From a virus, in the IMG/VR virus record IMGVR_UViG_3300022919_000001, positions 1 to 52,953 of that record: 52,953 bases of DNA. The stretch is one strand, 5' to 3'. The translations under genes were made by a program, and so were the position numbers. Below are positions 1-52,953 of this stretch, in pieces (the stretch's first letter is position 1; every line of letters begins with the position of its first letter). Below the pieces are notes generated by a model. The model did not search any database. It was not told the origin of the DNA and saw nothing but the letters and a program-made list of their open reading frames with translations.

Positions 1-127
1 TATAAGCAAGGAGTACGGGCGTTGGTATACTGGATCAGATGGTACTTATTATAGAACACCTAACCACATATCACCTGTTAAACGTGAATTAGCATTGCAG
101 GCTGGTTTCCCTGAAATACCGTTTGGG
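1..127. repeat. Terminal direct repeat identical to 52827..52953 (contig self-overlap; circular or circularly permuted genome)
   Basis: Base-by-base comparison shows the first 127 nt equal the last 127 nt. An ORF reads through the junction in frame. Confidence 0.95.
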
Positions 128-229: not shown

Positions 230-488
230 AAAAGGCAAAATTACAATTTGCAAATTTAGCATGACTTCAATGGGAGAACAGTCTATGAAGCTATTGTTTT
301 CTAACTTTTACCCTATCCATATAGAAAGGGGCGCATTTGACGATTCATTTATTTATTCGGGATATTCTGAACATTTTAAAGAAATTAAAGAGGGTAATCC
401 AATACCTAAATATGAAGCCGTTTTGCATTATGAAAGAGATAGCGATTATGAGATATTTTCGAGAGTTGAGTTTAAACTAATTGGTTAG
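204..488 (+). CDS. Hypothetical protein inside the glycosyltransferase island
   Basis: ORF track 183..488 starts at TTG; the first ATG is at 204. Same strand as the island. The start is uncertain. Confidence 0.4.
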   Translation: MITGTLKNRKGKITICKFSMTSMGEQSMKLLFSNFYPIHIERGAFDDSFIYSGYSEHFKEIKEGNPIPKYEAVLHYERDSDYEIFSRVEFKLIG

Positions 489-489
489 T

Positions 490-1722
490 ATGATTATGAA
501 AAATAATATCCAACTATCCATCCTAATCCCCTCAATCCCTACACGATTTGACAAGGCAACTTCGTTGTATAATAACTTGCTTAACATGGTTGGCGATAAG
601 CAAATCGAGATACTCATGCTCACAGATAACAAAGTAATTACCATAGGCGAAAAACAAAACCGCTTAATGCAAATGGCTAACGGTAAATATTTCTGCTTCA
701 TCCATGACGATGATTCGCTTACATCACTCGATGAGATTTACGAATCTACATTTCAGGATGTAGATATTATTTGTTTTAAAGCACGATGCCTTAATTCGGA
801 TGGATCTGAATATATTGTTACGCAAAAGTTAGGCAATGAAGTTGAGCATAACACAGCAGACGGTAAATATTTAGACTGCAATCGGCCGCCGTTCCCTAAT
901 TGCGTTTGGCATAACAGGTTTAAAAAGTTTAAGTTTCCTAACATATCCTACTCCGAGGACTGGCAATGGGTGCAAAAGTGTTTAAAGGTTGCCAACACAC
1001 AATTGTTCATTGATAAGGTGTTATTTCACTACAATTTCAACATCGAAGCTACCGAGGCTTCAACGGAAACCAATAAACATTGGGTAAATCCTAATCCTGA
1101 TAAAGTTTACAAGCGGTGTGTGGTTAACTTGTCCACTGAAAAGTATTGGGCAGGGCAAGAGCGATTGGCAAAGAGCATAACTGCCTATCCCGTTCTGATG
1201 TACAGAAGCGAAGCTGAAGTTGGCGCACCACCACATAAAGAAAACAACTATGCCTTTAAGCCGTATAGCTTCATTAAGGCGTACGAAGCAGGTTTTAGGC
1301 AGATACTTTGGCTCGATGCTTCTATCAGAGCCATTAAGGACATTAAACCGATATTTGATATAATAGACAAGGACGGTTATTTCTTTCAAGATAGCGGATG
1401 GCCTAATTCAAGATGGACAAACGATCGTGCATTAAAATACTTTGGCACAAATGAGGGTGAAATGTTGAGTAGTGGTGTATTGGGACTTGACCTTGATAAT
1501 CCATTAGCCTACCAATTCTTTGACCAATGGACGCAGGCAATGCGAGATGGCATATTTAATGGTGATTGGGAAAACCACCGACACGACCAATGTGCGGCTT
1601 CGCTAATCGCTCACAAATTAGGAATGAAACTACAGGATGGTAATACGTTCTTTGTGTACGGCAAAGAAGATGAGCCCACTATAAGTGATAAAACGGTTTT
1701 ATTAGCTGATGGGATTTGTTAA
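490..1722 (+). CDS. Two-domain glycosyltransferase (N-terminal GT2-like domain plus C-terminal nucleotide-sugar transferase-like domain)
   Basis: LSILIPSIPTR.. and FCFIHDDDSL (DxD) are paralogous to the 52489 ORF. The C-terminal half carries LWLDAS and HRHDQ motifs. ATG 490 lies 2 nt after the previous stop. Confidence 0.75.
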   Translation: MIMKNNIQLSILIPSIPTRFDKATSLYNNLLNMVGDKQIEILMLTDNKVITIGEKQNRLMQMANGKYFCFIHDDDSLTSLDEIYESTFQDVDIICFKARCLNSDGSEYIVTQKLGNEVEHNTADGKYLDCNRPPFPNCVWHNRFKKFKFPNISYSEDWQWVQKCLKVANTQLFIDKVLFHYNFNIEATEASTETNKHWVNPNPDKVYKRCVVNLSTEKYWAGQERLAKSITAYPVLMYRSEAEVGAPPHKENNYAFKPYSFIKAYEAGFRQILWLDASIRAIKDIKPIFDIIDKDGYFFQDSGWPNSRWTNDRALKYFGTNEGEMLSSGVLGLDLDNPLAYQFFDQWTQAMRDGIFNGDWENHRHDQCAASLIAHKLGMKLQDGNTFFVYGKEDEPTISDKTVLLADGIC

Positions 1723-1949
1723 ATAAATTTATTATGATAATACAATTAAACGAAACCGATTTAGTAAATACAGATAATATATTTACTGCTAAAAGATTAA
1801 CAAAAATACCTATTGGGAATGGCGATGGTTCTACTAAAGATAGTTTTAGAATTTGGATAAGTTCTATACATGGGAGTTCAGACACATTCTATTTTGACAA
1901 TGAAGTGGATTTAAATAAAGCATGGATAAAATTAAGAGGCAACATATGA
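1716..1949 (+). CDS. Hypothetical protein
   Basis: ORF track; alternative ATG at 1734. Its stop overlaps ATG 1946 of the next gene (ATGA). Confidence 0.4.
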   Translation: MLNKFIMIIQLNETDLVNTDNIFTAKRLTKIPIGNGDGSTKDSFRIWISSIHGSSDTFYFDNEVDLNKAWIKLRGNI

Positions 1950-2563
1950 AATACTACGCACAAAATTTAGAGGATCAATTCGTTCACCAATACTTCGGCG
2001 ATTATAAAGGAACGCTATTAGAAATAGGTGCAAATTCAGGGGAGTATTTAAGCAACTCATTAGCCCTTATACAAGCAGGGTGGAATGCACATCTAATCGA
2101 ACCCGGGCGCACTTTCTCCGACCTTGTTAAGCTCCATTATACTAATCCTAAAGTACATTTATACAATTATGCTATTGGCGAAACAGAAAGCGTAACTACG
2201 TTTTACGAATCAGGGGCGCACGTTATGGGCGGTAACGATAGTGGTTTAGTAAGCAGCTTAGACTTTGATGAAACCCTACGTTGGCGCAATGCAGGTGTTT
2301 CCTTTACAGAAGCTACGGTACAGGTTAAACCGTTTGCTGATTTTTATAAAGAAGCGGGTGAGCCTGTATTGGATTTTATTAGCATTGATGCAGAGGGGCA
2401 CGATTGGGATATTTTACAGCAGATAGATTTGGGCAAGGTGGGGTGTAAGTGTTTATGTATTGAGTGGAATGGGGATACCAGCCTATACAATAAGTTTCGT
2501 GATTACTGCAAAGGGTATAAATTAGCGCATGTTAACAGGGAGAACCTAATTTTTACGATATGA
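1922..2563 (+). CDS. FkbM-family methyltransferase
   Basis: LLEIGANSGEYLSNS matches the SAM-binding motif typical of the FkbM family. The alternative coupled start is ATG 1946. Confidence 0.75.
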   Translation: MDKIKRQHMKYYAQNLEDQFVHQYFGDYKGTLLEIGANSGEYLSNSLALIQAGWNAHLIEPGRTFSDLVKLHYTNPKVHLYNYAIGETESVTTFYESGAHVMGGNDSGLVSSLDFDETLRWRNAGVSFTEATVQVKPFADFYKEAGEPVLDFISIDAEGHDWDILQQIDLGKVGCKCLCIEWNGDTSLYNKFRDYCKGYKLAHVNRENLIFTI

Positions 2564-2709
2564 AGTTGTGGCAATACTTATTCAACCATAAAAAAAGTGT
2601 TGAACAAATGCAACGTGAGCAAAATAGGCTAAACGCTGAAATAAGGGCTATGTCATTTCAATCTGTTAAATTTAAAAAGTGTTGTGAATTTAAAATAGGA
2701 GCCAATTGA
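2560..2709 (+). CDS. Small hypothetical protein (49 aa)
   Basis: Hand-called. ATGA overlap with the upstream stop and TTGA overlap with the downstream start. Contains two copies of the AAAAAGTGTTG motif. Confidence 0.3.
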   Translation: MKLWQYLFNHKKSVEQMQREQNRLNAEIRAMSFQSVKFKKCCEFKIGAN

Positions 2710-3254
2710 TACATTACATATCCCCCTACTCCACCTCAAAGAACATCGGCAAAGCCATTAACGATAATATTCGCCAACTTAACCCAAATGATGAAGATTG
2801 GCTAGTTTTAATCGACCATGACGTTCTATTTTTGCTCCCCGACACAAAAGCACGCCTCGAACGCATCCTATCAACAACAAATTACGACATTTTAGGCTGC
2901 GTAACAAACCGCTTAGCCATGCCGTACCAATGCGTACAGGGAATGTTCGACGAAACTGATATTCGCAAACACATTGAAGTAGCCCAAATCCTAGAATCAG
3001 ACGAAGTACAACCCTACATGCACATTTTAGCAGCATTTTGCCTATGCTTTCAGGTCAAAACGTGGAGAAAATTAGGTGGATTTGCCGAAAATAGCATACA
3101 ATTTGATACTACTTTCTCGCTAATGGCTGAAAAGAGTGGGTTAAAGAAGGGATTAATGACGGGAGTTTACCTATTTCACGCATACAGGATGTGGTCTGAC
3201 AACCCTAAACAGGACGTGGCGCATTTGCTTCCTGATATACCGCAGCAAGAGTAG
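2706..3254 (+). CDS. GT-A fold glycosyltransferase-like protein
   Basis: WLVLIDHDVLFL (DxD-like) and the overall GT2-like layout. The TTG start is coupled to the upstream ORF. Confidence 0.6.
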   Translation: MIHYISPYSTSKNIGKAINDNIRQLNPNDEDWLVLIDHDVLFLLPDTKARLERILSTTNYDILGCVTNRLAMPYQCVQGMFDETDIRKHIEVAQILESDEVQPYMHILAAFCLCFQVKTWRKLGGFAENSIQFDTTFSLMAEKSGLKKGLMTGVYLFHAYRMWSDNPKQDVAHLLPDIPQQE

Positions 3255-4794: not shown

Positions 4795-4892
4795 TGCAAC
4801 GGGTAGGATTCGAACCTACAACACGGAGATACCTCGAAATATCTTTATCCGCACCAGCTACCTGTTACGTCTACCAATTGCGCCACCGTTGC
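4795..4892 (-). tRNA. tRNA-like gene A (Leu-type D arm, 97 nt, no canonical anticodon arm)
   Basis: Acceptor GCAACGG/CCGTTGC, D arm TGGCGCAATTGGTAGACGT, T arm GTAGG-TTCGAAT-CCTAC. The 47-nt central part lacks a 5-7-5 arm. Confidence 0.5.
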
Positions 4893-13263: not shown

Positions 13264-13270
13264 GTATCAT

Positions 13271-13311
13271 AAAAAAAGCCGGGTTACGTCTGGTGAAGGA
13301 AACGCCCCGGC
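13271..13311 (-). terminator. Hairpin plus T7 tract ending the IbrAB-like operon
   Basis: GCCGGG (13278-83) pairs with CCCGGC (13306-11). A7 on the plus strand gives T7 on the minus strand. Confidence 0.45.
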
Positions 13312-13391
13312 CTATGATTAATAAACCCAATTATTACGCAAATATAAGCCTTCACCCTTAATTTGCCTAAATTTTAATACCCTGCAATATA

Positions 13392-13745
13392 CTAATTTTC
13401 TTTCAAAATTACCACTCCATGCCCTTTTCTTTTTAACCCATTATCGTATAATACAGCTAATTTATGATGTATTGCTTGTTCCGATTTGCCTATCTTTTTA
13501 CCAACTTCCCTATAAGACATGCGCATGTAATTTCTCCGCAAATATCTAACTTCTGCTTGCGTCCAGTAAACATTTTTACCGTAAATAAATGACTTGGCAG
13601 CCTCGCATTCTATATCATTGGCTAATTTTTCAGCACCGCCATAGTTATTTATTAGGCTATTAAAGATAGCAAGCAACTCCCTGCCGCTTTCGCTCCATTC
13701 GTGTTGGTTCATTAGAAAAGGTTGGTTAAAGTGTTTCGGGTTCAT
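13392..13745 (-). CDS. Myb/SANT-like HTH protein
   Basis: WTQAEVRYLRRNYMRMSYREVGKKIGKSEQAIHHKL. The start is uncertain: ATG 13745 or 13712. Confidence 0.55.
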   Translation of the reverse strand: MNPKHFNQPFLMNQHEWSESGRELLAIFNSLINNYGGAEKLANDIECEAAKSFIYGKNVYWTQAEVRYLRRNYMRMSYREVGKKIGKSEQAIHHKLAVLYDNGLKRKGHGVVILKEN

Positions 13746-14397
13746 CTTCCAATATTTCAGGCTCCCAAGCCATACTAAATTCAGCATCTTTAAAAGCCTC
13801 TGCCAAACCTGTTATTTGGGTTAGTCTCAAAACTTCGTCGGCATCCATACCTAAATGTTTAGATATTTTAGCGTCCGACCAATTGCGGCGTTTGAGATCA
13901 ATAACAATATCACTCATTCCATCTATTGAGTGCTTGCCTCTTGCTCTATTGTGCTGAACTGTAGCAGCCATACGGTCTGAAATATCTTCCTGATCTGAAC
14001 GGATTGTAACTACAGGTAAATAACCTTGTATACGCTGCTTAATATCTTCATCATTTTTGCCGCACAAATGACGGTGAAACCCATCAATAACTTCACGCCC
14101 GTTATCAGCTTTCATTGTAACGATTGGCTGAGTGTAACCGCTTGATTGAATTGATAATTTAAGCAACTCCATTTCTGGTTTTGCCACACTATTTGGGTTG
14201 TAGCTATTAGCATATACATTTTCATTTTCAACCCATAGCACACAGTCTACAGGCTCATTTTTAAAAGGCGAAACATCGTGCAATAACAACCTGCAAGCGT
14301 TTAGCAAAGCAACCTTTTCGCCCAATTCACAATTATTAATCTTTTCGGATATTTCACCCATTATTTTTAGCAGGTGTTCGGTTTCGTGACTATTCAT
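13726..14397 (-). CDS. ParB/Srx-like nuclease-domain protein (IbrB-like)
   Basis: The IDGFHRH motif of the ParB N-terminal domain. 8-nt overlap with the upstream PP-loop gene. Confidence 0.7.
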   Translation of the reverse strand: MNSHETEHLLKIMGEISEKINNCELGEKVALLNACRLLLHDVSPFKNEPVDCVLWVENENVYANSYNPNSVAKPEMELLKLSIQSSGYTQPIVTMKADNGREVIDGFHRHLCGKNDEDIKQRIQGYLPVVTIRSDQEDISDRMAATVQHNRARGKHSIDGMSDIVIDLKRRNWSDAKISKHLGMDADEVLRLTQITGLAEAFKDAEFSMAWEPEILEDEPETL

Positions 14398-15601
14398 ATT
14401 GATATTCTTTAAGTTTTTTACGTTTTTCCATTAATTTTAAATACTTCGCATATGCCTCTGTTTTGTGCTGCGTAAATCCCAATCCCTTGCACCAATAATC
14501 ATTCCTTAGAAGGGATTTACATACACGTCGCCAAGAAGGCGCCAGCCTTTCAGCTTCCATTTTATAATCAGCTTCATCTGGTATACCATCAGGATAGCCG
14601 CGCTCGCACCACCATTTATAAAACACACTGATTTTGTTTTGAAATTGAGTTTTAGTTTTATCTGGCATAGATGCCAATAGTAACTGTGCATATGACTTCC
14701 AAGTATGATGAGCGGGTTTGGTTATTTTATTATATCCGTTAATACTGCCCGTTTCCTGAATATACAACGCCCCTGAATTAGCACCGTTTACCCTTGCTAC
14801 AACTTTAGCCCATGTTTCTGGTTCAATCAAATGGAATAGCCATAATCCCCTGCGCTGATCGTCACCGTACGGTTGGCAAATACGCATTTGAGATAATGTT
14901 AAACCAGCTTTGTGCATATAGTCATAAAGTCGGTTATGTGGCATATCAGGGCGTGTTGAGTGCCAATGCCAAATGTCTTGAACCTTCCAATCGTAAATAG
15001 GGTAAATATTGTACAAATCCGGCAAAACCTGCGTAGTCCAAATTTGGTCATTATAACGAACTTTTGTTTTGCTGGCAATAGTACGCCATCTGTTTAAACT
15101 TTCGTCGGTACGGATACCGACGAAACAAGCGCAGGGCTTGCCTTGTGCGTACCACCTGCCAAATTCAGGTACAAATTCCTCGAACTCCATATCCTGAATG
15201 TAAAATGGGAATTCTGTTTTACATACATTTTTTGGCTTCTCTCTAATCCAGTCTTTTTTACGGGATTCTTCCCAACATACCCAATGAGGCTCATAAACAG
15301 ATACCGCGTTACGTAAGTGTAACGGTACACAAATCCAATACGGTTCAATGTGATCTTTGTATAATTCAAAGCATTTTTGCATATGGTCAATGGTTAGTTT
15401 ATATTGCCCCTCCAAATCAACCAGCATAACCGCAACTTTACGACCGCGTTTAATAGCTTCATCCATTACAAGGTGAAGCATAATTGTACTATCCTTACCG
15501 CCACTAAATGAAATATAAATTTTCTCAAAGTTGTCAAACGTATATGAGATACGTTGCTTTGCGCCCTCAAGTACGTTATAAGGTAAAATCTTCTTTGACA
15601 T
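14390..15601 (-). CDS. PAPS-reductase-family PP-loop ATP pyrophosphatase with long C-terminal extension (IbrA-like)
   Basis: ISFSGGKDSTIMLHLV PP-loop motif. 403 aa, i.e. about 200 aa beyond the catalytic domain. Adjacent to the ParB-like gene. Confidence 0.75.
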   Translation of the reverse strand: MSKKILPYNVLEGAKQRISYTFDNFEKIYISFSGGKDSTIMLHLVMDEAIKRGRKVAVMLVDLEGQYKLTIDHMQKCFELYKDHIEPYWICVPLHLRNAVSVYEPHWVCWEESRKKDWIREKPKNVCKTEFPFYIQDMEFEEFVPEFGRWYAQGKPCACFVGIRTDESLNRWRTIASKTKVRYNDQIWTTQVLPDLYNIYPIYDWKVQDIWHWHSTRPDMPHNRLYDYMHKAGLTLSQMRICQPYGDDQRRGLWLFHLIEPETWAKVVARVNGANSGALYIQETGSINGYNKITKPAHHTWKSYAQLLLASMPDKTKTQFQNKISVFYKWWCERGYPDGIPDEADYKMEAERLAPSWRRVCKSLLRNDYWCKGLGFTQHKTEAYAKYLKLMEKRKKLKEYQYE

Positions 15602-15956
15602 AAGTAAAATTATTTTCGGTTTCCCATTCTTTAATTACAATATCAGCGCATTTATTAGCGTAAAATTGCTGTTCTTTTGTTAGTTCTTTCCAAGCCATAC
15701 GGGTTTCAAATTCTGTACTGCCAACTTCTATACAGCAAGCCGCTTGCCCCACCCATGATTTACGATTACTGCCAGCATTTGATAAATTATGATTTGTTGA
15801 TACAGGCCACATGGATATTACCCGCCGCATTGCCTCTAAAGGTTCTTGTAAAAGTTGTTTAGATTTTTCAATCTGTTCAATTTTTACTTCTTTACCCCAC
15901 ATTCCATTTTGGTAATCCTCCCAAGTTCTGTAGTCCGCGTAAAATCTTTTAGCCAT
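15576..15956 (-). CDS. Hypothetical protein, first gene of the IbrAB-like operon
   Basis: ORF track. Overlaps the PP-loop gene start by 26 nt. A promoter-like TATATTTG box lies at 16058-16065. Confidence 0.55.
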   Translation of the reverse strand: MAKRFYADYRTWEDYQNGMWGKEVKIEQIEKSKQLLQEPLEAMRRVISMWPVSTNHNLSNAGSNRKSWVGQAACCIEVGSTEFETRMAWKELTKEQQFYANKCADIVIKEWETENNFTYVKEDFTL

Positions 15957-16080
15957 AAAATAAAAAAGCCTTCGGGTTCAAAATGGTTGCCGCCAAATAT
16001 CCCCCAAAGGCTAATTAAAAAGTCTTTGATACGCCCGGCAAAGCGTTTATGTAAAATCAAATATAAGAAATAAATTACAT

Positions 16081-16515
16081 TTATTGATAGTATTTTTCAC
16101 CCTTGCGCAATATCATTACTTCACGGGTTTTAGTTAGTAAATCTGCAATAAAGGCTTTATGTTCATCGGTAATAACATCGTTTAGTATTGCCCATCTGCC
16201 GGCTATCTTAATCTGCTTTTGGCATTTAAAGTCGTTCCTGATAGCCGCGATAATTGTTTTACTTAGCCCGTTTGTTTTGATATTTTCGATAGCTAACTCA
16301 ACAGGGTGTTTATTATCGAACCGTTCGTCATGGCTGCGTTTTCTCGCATAAGACGAGCCTTTAATAATTGTATCGAGATCGGCTTGCAAAGTGCGGGTTT
16401 TTACTACACCTACCTTAGGGCTATACTGTTCGGTAGGAAAAGGATAATTTATATTTTCGCCAATAATCAATTTTAGCTTACTGGCATTAACTTTAATATC
16501 TGATAGCTTTTTCAT
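16081..16515 (-). CDS. Hypothetical protein
   Basis: ORF track; coupled to the upstream ORF (4-nt overlap). Confidence 0.55.
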   Translation of the reverse strand: MKKLSDIKVNASKLKLIIGENINYPFPTEQYSPKVGVVKTRTLQADLDTIIKGSSYARKRSHDERFDNKHPVELAIENIKTNGLSKTIIAAIRNDFKCQKQIKIAGRWAILNDVITDEHKAFIADLLTKTREVMILRKGEKYYQ

Positions 16516-16784
16516 TTAATTGAATTTAAATATTCTAACTGTAGTTTTTCAGCCTGCGTTAACGGTTTGTTTGATTTGCGCTCTTTAGGTTCTGCTATTT
16601 TGATAGGCGCAAAATCGGGTTTGGTATCACTCAACAAATCACTATTAACAGGAAACCTCACACCGCCAAACTCACAGATTAACACCCCGATATGATCTGA
16701 AATAATCTGCACTTCGCTACCTTGCGCAGCATAAAGTATTTTACCAGTTCCGTGTGATCGTATATCTGTGAGTAGGTAGGGCAT
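16512..16784 (-). CDS. Hypothetical protein
   Basis: ORF track. Confidence 0.5.
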   Translation of the reverse strand: MPYLLTDIRSHGTGKILYAAQGSEVQIISDHIGVLICEFGGVRFPVNSDLLSDTKPDFAPIKIAEPKERKSNKPLTQAEKLQLEYLNSIK

Positions 16785-19372: not shown

Positions 19373-20485
19373 CTACTTCACAGCCCCGACCAATGTCGGC
19401 AACTCCATAGGCTCACTGGCTCGTAATAAGCCTGAATTTCTTATATTTATGGCTGCGTTAACGTCACGGTCAATAGTTAAGCCGCAATCGCAATTATACA
19501 CACGCTCAATTAATGGCATATCTTTTATGTTGCCGCATCCTGAACAAGTTTTAGATGTTGGCTCAAACCTGCCTACTGCAATTAACTTTCGTCCCTTCCA
19601 ATCAGCTTTATATTTCAACATGGTAGCAAACTTACTCCAAGATGCATCTGAAATTGATAAAGCTAATTTTCTATTTTTAACCATATTTTTAACAGCTAAA
19701 TCTTCTATACAAATAGTACCGTATTGATTGGTTATCTCATTTGATACGTTATGCAAAAAGTGGTTGCGCTGATTAGTTATGCGTTCATGTAGTATTGATA
19801 CTCTTAAATTTGCTTTTTTACGGTTGGCCGATCCTTTTTTCTTACGGCTTGCTCTGCGCTGTAATACCGCCAGCCTGTCTAATGATTTTCGTAATAGATT
19901 AGGCGATTCGTATTCTTTACCATCCGATAGCACCGCAAATGTTTTTATCCCTAAGTCTATCCCTACAGTACCGCTATTATGCGGAAATGGGATATTTTCT
20001 GTTTGTACTAAAATAGAAGCGTAATATTTATTAGTTGGCGTTTTTGATATAGTTGCAGATTTTACCACGCCATTAAAAGCCCGATGTTGAATTACTTTTA
20101 TGCCCTCTCTGAACTTGCCTATAAAAAGAAAACCATTTTTAATAATTATACTCTCCTTAACAAAAAATGAATTTTTGCCTGATTTTTTCTTAAGGGCTGG
20201 AAATCCTGAACCCTTAAAAAATTTACTATACGCAACGTCCATGTTAAGTATCGCCTTATCCATAGAATCCCTCGTAACTTCATTTAGCCAAGGCAAATCT
20301 TTCTTTAAGTCGGTAAGTTGCTTTTGCAAGTCGTATGCAGATAGACTATGCTTACTGCCTCTATACGCTGCTATTTTAGTTTCCAAAGCCAAATTATAAA
20401 CAAAGCGAACACACCCGAAATGCTTTTCGAGCAACACTTTTTGAGTGCCTGTAGGATATATTCGATATTTATAATATTTATACAT
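19373..20485 (-). mobile_element. tnpB: TnpB (IS200/IS605-family OrfB, RNA-guided endonuclease) without tnpA
   Basis: MYKYYKYRIYPTGTQKVLLEKHFGCVRFVYN. RuvC triad motifs GIDLG, CIEDL and DRDVNAAINI. Zinc ribbon CSGCG..CDCG. Confidence 0.85.
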
Positions 20486-21886: not shown

Positions 21887-21976
21887 TTAAAATACCGTGT
21901 GCCGTGAGATAGTCACGGTCTGCTACCGCAACGCTCACAAGGCTTGCGGATTTGGCAGTAAAAAGACTTTTATATT

Positions 21977-22189
21977 ATGGCTAAAAGAGAAATACCAACA
22001 AAAAGAATTACACCCGCTGAAATAGCCGCAATGGCTATAGGTGAAACGCGCGAAGTACATGGAATGGTTTTAGGAACGTTTAAAACCTATGTAAGTAAGG
22101 CAAAGAAAATTGATCCTACCCTGCGCATTAAGTACTCCGATATGGTCGCTAATTTTGTAACCGCTAAACGTATATCAAATGACCACTAA
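21977..22189 (+). CDS. Hypothetical protein
   Basis: ORF track. Confidence 0.5.
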   Translation: MAKREIPTKRITPAEIAAMAIGETREVHGMVLGTFKTYVSKAKKIDPTLRIKYSDMVANFVTAKRISNDH

Positions 22190-50178: not shown

Positions 50179-50394
50179 ATGCTTATAATTGCCTTTAATA
50201 TGACACTACAGGAAGTTATTATTGATTTACGTAGCCGTAAGAAGGTTTACTTAGATGCAGGCTTAAAACAGGCTTATTTTAGCCAAATGTTAACTAAGAT
50301 TGAAAACGGGGTATCAAAGCCTGATACTACCCGAAGATTTTTAGGTTTGTTTGGTTACGAAGTAGAAAGGGAGATGTTATGGCAGAAGAAATAA
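50179..50394 (+). CDS. Small HTH-like protein at the start of the plus-strand island
   Basis: ORF track; first ATG at 50200. ..LKQAYFSQMLTKIENGVSKPD.. looks like a Cro/CI-type HTH. Confidence 0.45.
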   Translation: MLIIAFNMTLQEVIIDLRSRKKVYLDAGLKQAYFSQMLTKIENGVSKPDTTRRFLGLFGYEVEREMLWQKK

Positions 50395-50930
50395 TATGGA
50401 AAGATATTAGGGGCTATAACGGTGTTTACTCAATATCAAATACTGGTATTGTTAGAAGAAACGCTGTCCCTGTTAATAGAGTTTCTAGGTATGGTAACAT
50501 ATATCAATCTACTTTTAAAGAGGTTCTTAATAAGTATACTCTAAATAGAGATGGCTATTATTATGTAGGTTTGTGTATTAATGGCAAACCAAAGCAGCAC
50601 AAGGTACATAGATTAGTTGCTGAACATTTTTGTGAAAAGCAAGAGGGGAAAAACCATGTTGATCATATAGACGGTAACAAACTAAATAATTATAGTTATA
50701 ACTTAAGATGGTGTACGCACGCCGAAAATATCTCTTTTGCATGGGATAATGGTATTTACAATAATGTCGGATCTAATCACGGCATGTCTAAATTAGATGA
50801 AATATCTGTTTGTGAAATAAAAAAACTGATACAAAGTGGCGAACGTAACTATATAATTGCTAAAAAATTCGGTGTAAGTCAACCGACTATTTGTGATATA
50901 AGAAAGGGTAGAGCATGGAACCACGTATAG
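50379..50930 (+). mobile_element. HNH homing endonuclease (NUMOD4-like N-terminus, HNH_3-like core, C-terminal HTH)
   Basis: WKDIRGYNGVYSISNTGIV, HRLVAEHF..VDHIDGNKLNNYSYNLRWCTHAEN, and IIAKKFGVSQPTICDI. Confidence 0.8.
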
Positions 50931-51544
50931 CCGTTTGCATAACAACCACCCCAAACCGTAAGCAATTATTTGAGCAATCATTTAAGCATCTAAGAGAAAA
51001 TACCCCGAATGACGTTTCTTATAAAATATACTTAGATGAAAAATATGAAGGTATAGCTAAGGCAAAAAACAAGTGCCTTGCTATGTGCGATGGTTTTGAT
51101 TTCGTGTTCCTTTTAGATGACGATATTTTTGCCCTTGATAAGTCATGGACTGACGAGTATATAAATTCAGGTCTTGAACACGCTATGTATATTTTTGACA
51201 GGAGATTGTTAATCAAGTCAGAGCAATACTTTAGTTATGATTTACCCCGAGGATGCATGCTTTTCTTAACCCGAAAAGCAATTGATACGGCGGGGGGCAT
51301 GGATGAAGATTTCAAAGTTTGGGGGTATGAGCATGCCGAATATTCTCGTCGGATTTTTAATATGGGCTTAACACCTGCGCCTTTTATTGATATACCAAAT
51401 GTTATAGATTTGTTTTACTCATACGATAAGTGGCAGGCTTGCAAGTCAAGTGTTAGCGATAGTCAGCGAATGCAATCAATTCCTGCCAATTACCACCTCT
51501 ATCAACAAAAATATTATAGTAAAGAATTTAAACCGTTTAGATGA
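50915..51544 (+). CDS. Glycosyltransferase family 2-like
   Basis: GIAKAKNKCLAMCDGFDFVFLLDDDIF (DxD) and GGMDEDFKVWGYEHAEYSRRIFNMG. Confidence 0.75.
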   Translation: MEPRIAVCITTTPNRKQLFEQSFKHLRENTPNDVSYKIYLDEKYEGIAKAKNKCLAMCDGFDFVFLLDDDIFALDKSWTDEYINSGLEHAMYIFDRRLLIKSEQYFSYDLPRGCMLFLTRKAIDTAGGMDEDFKVWGYEHAEYSRRIFNMGLTPAPFIDIPNVIDLFYSYDKWQACKSSVSDSQRMQSIPANYHLYQQKYYSKEFKPFR

Positions 51545-51699
51545 AAACAATATCAGTTACAAATAATATAGCCAACTACAGCACGGTTGGCGCTAAGATA
51601 GATGGCAAGATAGATGCAGTTCAACCTTTATTTCGGGATAAAAACTACACTAGATTCGTAAGATATATTATTATTCACTCTTTTATTTCAGCGAATTAA
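51541..51699 (+). CDS. Small hypothetical protein (52 aa)
   Basis: Hand-called; ATGA overlap upstream and TAATG overlap downstream. Confidence 0.35.
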   Translation: MKTISVTNNIANYSTVGAKIDGKIDAVQPLFRDKNYTRFVRYIIIHSFISAN

Positions 51700-52367
51700 T
51701 GAAAATCAGTATAATACATCCGAGCCGAGGCCGTGCAGAAATGGCTTATAAAACATTTTGTAACTGGCGCGAAAATGCATTTTTTCTTGGTCATGAATAC
51801 ATCCTTTCATTAGATACCGATGATAATGTTGATTCGTATTGGAAGTTATTTATAGATTATGATTTAGCTATAATGACAAACCATAATAAATCAGCTATTG
51901 AAGCCATTAATAAAGCAGTCCAAACAGCAAGCGGGGATTTAATAATAGTTATTTCAGACGATTTCGACTGTTTGCCATATTGGGACAGCCAGTTGTTAGA
52001 GGCATTAGCCGGCCGTGAAGATTTCTTAGTTAAAACCCAAGACGGTATACAAAAGACGCTTATAACATTGCCTATAATGGATAGGGTGTATTACGAGCGG
52101 TTTGGGTATGTGTACCACCCTGACTATTTACACATGCACTGCGATGAAGAAATGACTATTGTAGGACACATGTTGGGACGTGTAATTGATTTGCCTTTAG
52201 TATTCCCGCATAATCACTATACGGTTGGCGGCATGCAAATGGATGCTATTAACACTAAGAATAACGCAACGTGGGCGCATGGTGCAGCTACATTGGAACG
52301 AAGGGCTAAAGATAATTTCGGAATTGAAAATCCTTTGGTTAGGAGGGAGGATATTGTATGGCGGTAG
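51699..52367 (+). CDS. GT-A fold glycosyltransferase-like protein
   Basis: MKISIIHPSRGR.., LSLDTDDNV and IVISDDFDCLPYW (DxD-like). Confidence 0.55.
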   Translation: MKISIIHPSRGRAEMAYKTFCNWRENAFFLGHEYILSLDTDDNVDSYWKLFIDYDLAIMTNHNKSAIEAINKAVQTASGDLIIVISDDFDCLPYWDSQLLEALAGREDFLVKTQDGIQKTLITLPIMDRVYYERFGYVYHPDYLHMHCDEEMTIVGHMLGRVIDLPLVFPHNHYTVGGMQMDAINTKNNATWAHGAATLERRAKDNFGIENPLVRREDIVWR

Positions 52368-52492: not shown

Positions 52493-52953
52493 GCGATATA
52501 ACCCTTTCAATCCTTATAGCCAATATGCCGAGCCGATGGGTTAAGTTTGGGCACATGCAAGCCTTTATTTGCGAAAACGCAGAAGATGCTGGGTTATTAG
52601 ATTATATCGAAATTATCGGCGATGCTAGTATGGATTACAACATCGGCACCAAACGCAATAAACTACTCCAAAAAGCTAAAGGCGAATACATAGTATTCAT
52701 TGACGACGACGACCATATTTCACCAGATTATGTAAGTAAGATTTTTAAAGCCTGCCAAAGTGGCGCAGATTGCATCGGCATAAGCGGCATAATAACAACC
52801 AACGGCCATGATAAAAGGCAATGGCATATAAGCAAGGAGTACGGGCGTTGGTATACTGGATCAGATGGTACTTATTATAGAACACCTAACCACATATCAC
52901 CTGTTAAACGTGAATTAGCATTGCAGGCTGGTTTCCCTGAAATACCGTTTGGG
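52489..52953 (+). CDS. Glycosyltransferase family 2-like, N-terminal part (continues at 128..229 across the junction)
   Basis: LSILIANMPSR.., IGTKRNKLLQKAKGEYIVFIDDDDHIS (DxD). The frame is open at the window end and in frame with 2..229. Confidence 0.8.
   Translation, partial: MSDITLSILIANMPSRWVKFGHMQAFICENAEDAGLLDYIEIIGDASMDYNIGTKRNKLLQKAKGEYIVFIDDDDHISPDYVSKIFKACQSGADCIGISGIITTNGHDKRQWHISKEYGRWYTGSDGTYYRTPNHISPVKRELALQAGFPEIPFG
52827..52953. repeat. Terminal direct repeat identical to 1..127
   Basis: See the feature at 1..127. Confidence 0.95.

Follow-up and report, generated by a model that had tools for sequence, protein, structure and literature searches.

Introduction

The proteins IbrA and IbrB of Escherichia coli ECOR-9 and their homologues YbdN and YbdM of E. 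coli K-12 combine a COG3969-type enzyme with a ParB-like protein and count among the larger phage and bacterial protein pairs still without a biochemical function. The family is spread over E. coli K-12, dairy Streptococcus phages and phages of fish-pathogenic Flavobacterium, and the occurrence of the pair is in itself ordinary, with representatives in cultured phages such as those of Streptococcus thermophilus, a SEED subsystem and the K-12 homologues. Genes of S. thermophilus phages are already annotated as 'IbrA' and 'IbrB, co-activator of prophage gene expression', and viromics routinely counts the family as the sulfur-metabolism auxiliary gene 'cysH'. In a full-text search of the literature, we found no biochemical characterisation of IbrA/IbrB, YbdN/YbdM or the DUF3440 family and no paper settling their chemistry, in line with the first-pass annotation of the DNA studied here, which had called the pair biochemically unsolved. 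Here we have analysed such a pair in the virus record IMGVR_UViG_3300022919_000001 of IMG/VR, the whole 52,953 nucleotides of which are referred to as the window, where it is encoded next to a third protein that we have termed X.

The closest described systems assign ParB-like proteins to enzymes acting on DNA. DndB accompanies DndC, an enzyme with a described Cys dyad (PMC10853773), DpdB assists DpdA (PMC12839542) and the phage ParB homologue ParB176 was found in experiments to activate a DNA thymine dioxygenase on double-stranded DNA (PMC13229309). With these precedents in mind we tentatively favour, at somewhat less than an even chance, a function of X, IbrA and IbrB as a DNA-directed, ATP-dependent module for a modification or marking that does not involve sulfur and that would be guided by the ParB-like protein.

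Results

A conserved third component of the IbrA/IbrB pair

The pair of the window consists of a PP-loop enzyme of 403 residues and a ParB/Srx-like protein of 223 residues (Table 1). The former matches the Pfam families PAPS_reduct (PF01507; E-value 2.1e-11, 44.6 bits with a cut-off of 22.5) and DUF3440 (PF11922; 8.6e-36, 123.8 bits with a cut-off of 25) as well as PHROG 2302 (6e-84), and shares 43% of its residues with E. coli K-12 YbdN over the full length of 397 aligned positions (2e-121). Its C-terminal extension, for which a DUF3440-type domain had been suspected, is thus of this type, with a domain of about 170 residues. The smaller protein matches PHROG 2159 'ParB-like' (4.7e-66) and shares 47% identity with YbdM across 212 aligned positions (1e-72). 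Both sequence motifs that had been pointed out, SFSGGKDST at residues 30-38 of the enzyme and IDGFHRH at residues 104-110 of its partner, are contained in the translations. Since the domain architecture, the partner gene and the full-length similarity to YbdN and YbdM all agree, the pair can be placed in a known and named family, and the initial proposal of an IbrA/IbrB architecture, with a PAPS_reduct and DUF3440 enzyme beside a ParB/Srx-like protein, holds. The E. coli reference in these comparisons is the ybdM-ybdN-citR region of K-12 and not IbrA/IbrB of ECOR-9.

For a broader view of the module we compared 94 loci, the window and 93 related loci, the latter retrieved by peptide patterns of the window's IbrA and drawn from 80 viral loci, 2 metagenomic contigs, 11 genome contigs and 2 loci of cultured phages. 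Homologues of X, the open reading frame (ORF) of 126 codons that precedes IbrA in the window, were sought by tblastn and with a hidden Markov model, and architectures were counted after simple gene calling; because the window's own IbrA peptides were used for retrieval, the resulting proportions are biased towards close relatives. A homologue of X adjoins IbrA in 73 of the 94 loci. The order X-IbrA-IbrB is found in 26 loci and IbrB-X-IbrA in 22, and in a further 17 IbrB and X are fused and followed by IbrA, these fusions being single ORFs of about 375 codons that encode IbrB as the N-terminal and X as the C-terminal part. IbrA and IbrB occur without X in 14 loci, and fragments and other arrangements account for the remaining 15. 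One fusion protein of a representative library (P0361) scores above the Pfam threshold for ParB_N. The position of X moves together with that of IbrB and the two are repeatedly fused, which makes X a functional partner of IbrB and a third, conserved member of the module. The ORF had initially been listed as an unknown gene of the operon, and it indeed belongs to no named family, but its conservation and its fusion to IbrB set it apart from an accessory gene. X is absent from the locus of E. coli K-12, from loci of Neisseria, Cedecea, Enterobacter and Vibrio and from that of an S. thermophilus phage, and we thus regard the three-gene form as a sub-architecture found mainly in the viral clade nearest to the window.

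X has an isoelectric point (pI) of 5.5 and was modelled by AlphaFold2 as a protein of seven helices with high confidence (predicted local distance difference test, pLDDT, of 93.7; predicted template modelling score of 0.87). A Foldseek search of this model against the PDB returned nothing significant (best E-value 2.6), and a search of BFVD returned one unnamed homologue. No match was obtained for X in PHROG or PADLOC and no meaningful one in sequence-profile searches of the PDB, and a Pfam scan of 21 diverse members produced scattered noise at most. A relationship to IbrA was considered and not found by hhalign, and the source names 'AlkC' and 'protoheme ferro-lyase', each attached to one homologue, were treated as annotation noise. 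Homologues form 2,820 clusters at 90% identity, nearly all of them unnamed or 'hypothetical', and 826 representative clusters at 50% identity, which mostly contain stand-alone proteins of 120-150 residues. The invariant residues of X are W12, E13, W50, N64, G70, Q71 and A104, and a short motif reads STNHNL in the clade of the window and SCEHNL in most members.

Three further occurrences of X were noted. In protein P0372 it follows a small-terminase domain (Terminase_2, 1e-8) and in P0380 it precedes a weak C-terminal fragment of DUF3440, both of which could be either real fusions or artefacts of gene calling. In the Microcystis phage Mwe-JY13 (PP438406.1), the homologue at positions 2576-3001 of the locus is annotated as 'ParB/sulfiredoxin', a label that was probably transferred from IbrB-X fusion proteins.

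Conserved features of IbrA

The IbrA family is large, with at least 8,000 homologous clusters at 90% identity, thousands of which, among the matches listed, are about 70% identical to IbrA of the window, and with relatives in 224 GenBank phage records including one of 59% identity in Mwe-JY13. Its conservation was analysed in 81 non-identical sequences of 41-93% identity. Invariant in this set are the PP-loop (S31-F-S-x-G-K-D-S38), the residues D62, E64 and Q66, the arginine motif G162-I-R-x-x-E-S-L-x-R171 and about 15 aromatic residues, most of which are tryptophans. Going by what is established for PP-loop enzymes, an intact loop of the ATP type in such a protein means that it transfers adenylyl groups or activates its substrate as an adenylate. 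None of the cysteines is invariant: C242, C361 and C371 are conserved to 93-95% and C157 and C159, forming a 'CAC' pair, to 52% and 64%, and the ECGLH motif with the C-terminal catalytic cysteine is not contained in the sequence. A universal three-cysteine iron-sulfur site formed by C242, C361 and C371 was considered and rejected, as different sequences lose different cysteines. The pattern argues against a CysH-like catalytic cysteine, a three-cysteine [4Fe-4S] site for sulfur insertion as in DndC and TtuA and the Cys dyad of DndC.

Two sulfur chemistries of related enzymes can be judged on this basis. In one, a minimal pair of the DndC/DndB type would introduce phosphorothioates with the help of host IscS, which can stand in for DndA in Dnd systems (PMC10853773). 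The pairing of a PP-loop enzyme with a ParB-like protein would fit such a scheme, as would weak matches of IbrA to DndC, which amount to 26.8 bits for the NCBIfam model TIGR03183 and, in PADLOC, to 31.8 bits (1.8e-8) for a local stretch of residues 160-246, where weak PP-loop similarity to BrxP was detected as well. However, the cut-off of the DndC equivalog model is 290.4 bits, the best-conserved cysteines are lost independently, so that neither a three-cysteine cluster nor a Cys dyad can be obligatory, and IbrB has no PADLOC match to DndB. A cysteine desulfurase, DndD and DndE are found neither among the scanned ORFs of the window nor among the recurrent neighbours in the 94 loci, as had been noted at the outset for this operon. 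Together these observations make phosphorothioation very improbable.

In the other, IbrA would be a viral phosphoadenosine phosphosulfate (PAPS) reductase, CysH, carried as an auxiliary metabolic gene to boost sulfate assimilation of the host. The PAPS_reduct domain and the fold are shared with CysH, relatives carry names such as 'phosphoadenosine phosphosulfate sulfurtransferase' or 'PAPS reductase' in their sources, and in a preprint from viromics the DUF3440 clade is assigned to the viral CysH proteins (10.1101/2021.01.05.425418). Against this assignment, the CysH models TIGR02057, TIGR00434 and NF002537 score 23.4, 23 and 21.2 bits with cut-offs of 254.2, 165.1 and 154, and the PP-loop is of the canonical ATP type (SGGKDS), in a protein with neither the catalytic ECGLH cysteine nor any other invariant one, which is obligately linked to a ParB-like gene, is linked to X and resides among replication genes. 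IbrA is not a CysH protein, the resemblance being confined to the fold, and we consider a role in sulfate assimilation to be exceedingly improbable. With no invariant cysteine, no desulfurase, DndD or DndE and all specific NCBIfam models for DndC and CysH missed about tenfold, Dnd-like and CysH-like chemistry are both unlikely, and the reaction of IbrA is probably neither sulfur-based nor a redox process.

The AlphaFold model of IbrA is confident in its N-terminal domain only and, in a Foldseek search, about 230 columns of this domain resembled CysH, the PAPS domain of FAD synthase, APS reductase, CysD and FMN adenylyltransferase (FMNAT), with E-values between 7e-8 and 1e-5 for the CysH/CysD/FMNAT fold, followed in rank by TtuA, LarE, TilS and NcsA. 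CysD and FMNAT adenylylate small molecules, and PP-loop enzymes such as TilS and those of the TtuA type modify tRNA bases. The order of structural neighbours, with the small-molecule enzymes first and the tRNA enzymes TtuA, TilS and NcsA next, would be compatible with a system in which IbrA transfers an adenylyl group to a nucleotide or metabolite or acts on a base of tRNA and in which IbrB processes nucleotides instead of loading onto DNA, to the benefit of a phage that would evade or disarm host defences or alter nucleotide pools. The ParB/Srx superfamily includes NTPase and nuclease activities, and a degradation of nucleotides in conflict systems has been proposed (PMC10853773, PMC12839542). 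Speaking against this possibility are the helix-turn-helix (HTH) of IbrB and the location of the module among replication genes described below, the lack of a match to PADLOC defence models beyond the weak PP-loop similarity to DndC and BrxP and the lack of a phage tRNA gene called by ARAGORN. Moreover, a DUF3440 domain of about 170 residues in a basic protein (pI 9.0) would better suit a polymeric substrate. We therefore regard a small molecule or RNA as a rather improbable target.

IbrB as a ParB-like protein

Among 77 sequences of IbrB, the motifs YNPN, DGFHR and HNRARGKH are invariant and the C-terminal HTH is conserved. The protein does not qualify as a ParB protein of partition systems: its score for Pfam ParB_N (E-value 0.018, 15.5 bits) lies below the cut-off of 26.3, and in an alignment to Noc its DGFHR motif stands at the position of the ParB GERR box (GERRxRA). 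With neither ParA nearby nor parS repeats in the window, an assignment to the partition ParB family was rejected. PADLOC contained no match for IbrB, including none to DndB or DpdB.

The module resides among replication and recombination genes

Clustering of the three genes on either side of the module across the loci revealed recurrent neighbours, all of which belong to the PHROG category 'DNA, RNA and nucleotide metabolism'. They include PD-(D/E)XK exonucleases in 24 loci (forming three clusters and often directly adjoining the module), a primase/helicase in 15, a single-stranded DNA-binding protein (SSB) in 8, NinG/Rap in 7 and an HNH endonuclease in 5. The module is thus consistently found among phage replication and recombination genes of related loci. 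The order IbrB-X-IbrA-YqaJ-(hypothetical)-RecT in Mwe-JY13 matches the setting in the window, unlike that of the S. thermophilus phage CHPC1230, where the pair is in a moron position after the lysin.

In the window, X, IbrA, IbrB and an HTH gene are preceded by genes for RecT, an ExoVIII-like exonuclease, an endonuclease VII/HNH protein and two small proteins of no assigned function, and followed by those for a primase, a helicase and an AAA_25 protein, which bears out the earlier placement of the cassette in a phage replication block. The two small ORFs of 144 and 90 codons (16081-16784, minus strand), located between the HNH endonuclease and the cassette, match no Pfam or PHROG family and have no homologues in the related loci. 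The HTH protein of 131 residues, in turn, resembles phage transcriptional regulators (PHROG 14101 and 323; 1.8e-9). It had been counted as a member of the operon module, a view that we have abandoned because none of the 93 related loci contains a homologue, placing this lineage-specific gene outside the conserved unit.

Genomic context and conservation also bear on the main rival of a DNA modification, the one role that experiments on the family support. In this transcriptional co-activator or anti-silencing system, IbrB, as a ParB-like nucleotide switch with an HTH, would bind to DNA of the phage or host and turn on a set of genes, and IbrA and X would provide or control the nucleotide ligand of IbrB or modify this regulator, with no covalent mark on DNA. 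The family owes its name to the enhanced expression of Eib in the presence of ibrB in E. coli (PMC7649339, citing Sandt et al. 2002), and in K-12 ybdNM is repressed by CitR (PMC9068703). The HTH in IbrB, the regulator gene directly behind the pair in the window and the moron position in CHPC1230 would all be in accord with such a role. On the other side, the catalytic motifs of IbrA (PP-loop) and IbrB (DGFHR and HNRARGKH) are invariant across distant members and therefore favour enzymology over mere binding, and the association of the module with genes for exonucleases, SSB and primase points to DNA metabolism. No integrase-like protein was found among the scanned window ORFs of at least 300 codons, and an activation of prophage genes would thus not apply literally. 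The two views are compatible, since a mark on DNA could act as the means of gene activation, which would then follow downstream of it. A co-activator acting without such a mark seems to us possible, if on balance unlikely.

Layout of the cassette

The features of the cassette are summarized in Table 1. All four ORFs proposed initially were recovered on the minus strand, with overlaps of 26 nt between X and IbrA and of 8 nt between IbrA and IbrB, whereas one of 62 nt between IbrB and the HTH gene depends on the use of the first ATG of the latter and disappears with the in-frame ATG at 13712. The end-to-end overlap of the first three genes suggests that their translation is coupled.

Table 1. 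Features of the X-IbrA-IbrB cassette in the window.
Feature	Position	Strand	Remarks
Upstream intergenic region, putative promoter	15957..16080	-	124 nt; TATATTTG box at 16058-16065
X, 126 aa, all-helical, acidic	15576..15956	-	homologues beside IbrA in related loci
IbrA/YbdN-type enzyme, 403 aa	14390..15601	-	Pfam PAPS_reduct and DUF3440, PHROG 2302
IbrB/YbdM-type ParB/Srx-fold protein, 223 aa	13726..14397	-	PHROG 2159
HTH regulator-like ORF, 131 aa (106 aa from ATG at 13712)	13392..13787	-	PHROG 14101, 323
Hairpin followed by U7, likely intrinsic terminator or attenuator	13266..13318	-	RNA fold

The cassette had been described as an autonomous operon with a TATATTTG promoter box and a terminator consisting of a hairpin and a T7 run. 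The hairpin is real, with a folding energy of -21.6 kcal/mol (z -2.76); it was not called in a scan for consensus terminators and ends 3 nt upstream of the ATG of the primase (13263). The box is present as well but not distinctive, since the underlying pattern TAnnTTTG is present 37 times on one strand of the window and 33 times on the other, compared to about 29 per strand estimated from base composition. By itself, it thus provides no evidence for a promoter, and a scan of the upstream region for sigma-70 promoters also remained at chance level (12 found, 14.6 expected). A promoter in this region is plausible on the basis of the sequence, as is an autonomous operon, the latter being qualified by the location of the cassette inside a long co-directional block of minus-strand genes from about 8.8 to 20.5 kb. 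A second TATATTTG box (13339-13346, minus strand) is located between the stop codon of the HTH gene and the hairpin, and both could constitute a promoter and a leader hairpin (attenuator) for the primase and helicase genes in place of a simple operon terminator. Finally, the search for repeated sites to which IbrB might bind gave a single local item, the start region of X (15945-15965, TTTTATTTTATGGCTAAAAGA), which is 95% complementary over 21 nt to that of a plus-strand gene (21968-21988). Both proteins start with MAKR, and the match probably reflects a common translation-initiation context or chance.

The phage genome

The first and last 127 bp of the window (1-127 and 52827-52953) form an exact direct terminal repeat, which identifies the assembly as that of a closed, circular or circularly permuted, phage genome of about 52,826 bp. 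Its GC content is 37.8%, and its genes for small and large terminase subunits, portal, major head protein and tail-associated proteins are those of a tailed phage. No close cultured relative was detected when 25 kb of the window were compared by megablast to GenBank phages, and blastn of the cassette returned just patches of 64-70% identity.

Three further regions are of note. Beside RecT in the recombination block lies a TnpB-type gene (19373-20485, minus strand) with matches to Pfam HTH_OrfB_IS605, OrfB_IS605 and the Cas12f1-like TNB domain and to PHROG 506 (9e-123). A cluster on the plus strand that is contiguous over the assembly junction (50379-52367 and 481-3254) encodes an HNH endonuclease, four glycosyltransferases (one GT7C-like, one GT2 and two recognised by PHROGs alone) and an FkbM-type methyltransferase. 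A contribution of these glycosyltransferases to the module as DNA-glycosylating partners was considered and dismissed, as their Pfam types look glycan-directed and no link to the cassette was found; by their sequence, the cluster looks to be directed at glycans of the host surface or the virion. On the minus strand at 4795-4892, a segment of 98 nt matches an Rfam tRNA model with 36 bits (gathering score 29) and is not called by ARAGORN. This segment may represent a tRNA-like element or else a tRNA that is atypical or carries an intron.

Discussion

A proposed function of the module

In the DNA-directed mechanism that we tentatively favour, IbrB, as a nucleotide-binding protein of the ParB/Srx fold equipped with an HTH, would engage DNA, and X, either tethered or fused to it, would recruit or activate IbrA and thereby couple both proteins. 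IbrA could then adenylate a group of the nucleic acid, for instance a phosphate or the carbonyl of a base, and thereby open this group to substitution or tagging. DNA as the target and this division of labour among three proteins are what we infer from the organization of the module, and the phage might gain protection from host nucleases or control over gene expression. A self-protective DNA modification or an anti-restriction activity had already been put forward as a hypothesis in the first-pass annotation, and the lack of an invariant cysteine shifts the conceivable chemistry away from phosphorothioation.

Several points weigh against this proposal. So far, neither a modified nucleotide nor DNA binding or ATPase activity has been demonstrated for any member of the family, and the enhancement of Eib expression, the sole experimental phenotype that could be traced, is transcriptional; in the work on CitR, no DNA phenotype is reported for ybdNM (PMC9068703). 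The acidic character of IbrB (pI 5.0) and the lack of a convincing parS-like repeated site in the window do not speak for loading onto DNA, and the DUF3440 domain is poorly modelled (pLDDT of about 50-80), with no structural match in Foldseek. PP-loop enzymes often act on tRNA or small molecules, and the substrate of IbrA could likewise be RNA or a nucleotide.

A more specific version of the DNA-directed mechanism, in which the three proteins install a covalent, ATP-dependent and non-sulfur DNA mark that has not yet been described, with IbrB as ParB-type loader and X as specificity or adaptor subunit of a new fold, is in our view rather unlikely. Examples of such a mark would be adenylylation or the amination of an adenylate-activated base carbonyl. 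If this version were true, thousands of viral genes assigned as the auxiliary metabolic gene cysH, together with ybdNM of E. coli, would constitute a new class of DNA modification.

In our search of the literature, we did not find a description of the conserved third subunit with its unmatched fold, of its fusion to IbrB or of the lack of conserved cysteines in IbrA. With its conserved third subunit, which many phages encode as a fusion to IbrB, the module has a defined set of proteins for reconstitution, and a requirement for X may explain a possible failure of two-gene expression in the phage clade. Now that sulfur or redox chemistry can be excluded as obligatory, fewer products have to be sought by mass spectrometry. 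For viromics, the ATP-type PP-loop, the missing catalytic cysteine and the obligate linkage to a ParB-like gene among replication genes argue that the label 'cysH' is wrong.

Comparison with known systems

The module does not correspond to a known defence system, as the PADLOC models showed a weak local PP-loop similarity of IbrA to DndC and BrxP and matched neither IbrB nor X. With CysH, CysD and FMNAT, IbrA shares the fold of its N-terminal 230 residues and, in case of CysD and FMNAT, also the ATP-type PP-loop, but it differs from this group in scoring below the thresholds of the respective models, lacking a catalytic cysteine and having an additional DUF3440 domain and ParB-like and X partners. 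The resemblance to DndB/DndC extends to the combination of a PP-loop ATP pyrophosphatase of the PAPS-reductase clade with a ParB/Srx protein containing a DGxHR-type motif. It does not include the DndC model, conserved iron-sulfur cysteines, a Cys dyad or a match to DndB, and neither DUF3440 nor X has a counterpart in Dnd systems. The closest agreement is found with IbrA/IbrB of ECOR-9 and YbdN/YbdM of K-12, which resemble the pair of the window in architecture, in the overlapping order of the genes for enzyme and ParB-like protein and in the invariant motifs. Whereas X is present in the window and in the majority of the viruses closely related to it and the pair of the window is part of a phage replication block, the K-12 locus lacks X and ybdNM is located next to a LysR regulator, so that the eib activation phenotype of E. 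coli is not directly transferable.

At the level of mechanism, the nearest parallels are DpdA/DpdB of 7-deazaguanine DNA modification and the phage thymine dioxygenase pair 5mYOX176/ParB176, where a ParB-like accessory protein helps an enzyme that modifies DNA, as we propose for the window. There is no membership by sequence, the catalytic partner being a transglycosylase in DpdA and an Fe/2OG dioxygenase in 5mYOX176 instead of a PP-loop enzyme, and as regards the Dpd system, the neighbouring genes included none of the TGT type and PADLOC had no match for IbrB. The ParB protein associated with 5mYOX is also without an obvious DNA-binding domain, whereas IbrB contains an HTH. By analogy, the module of X, IbrA and IbrB most plausibly works in the manner of these ParB-assisted DNA-modifying enzymes.

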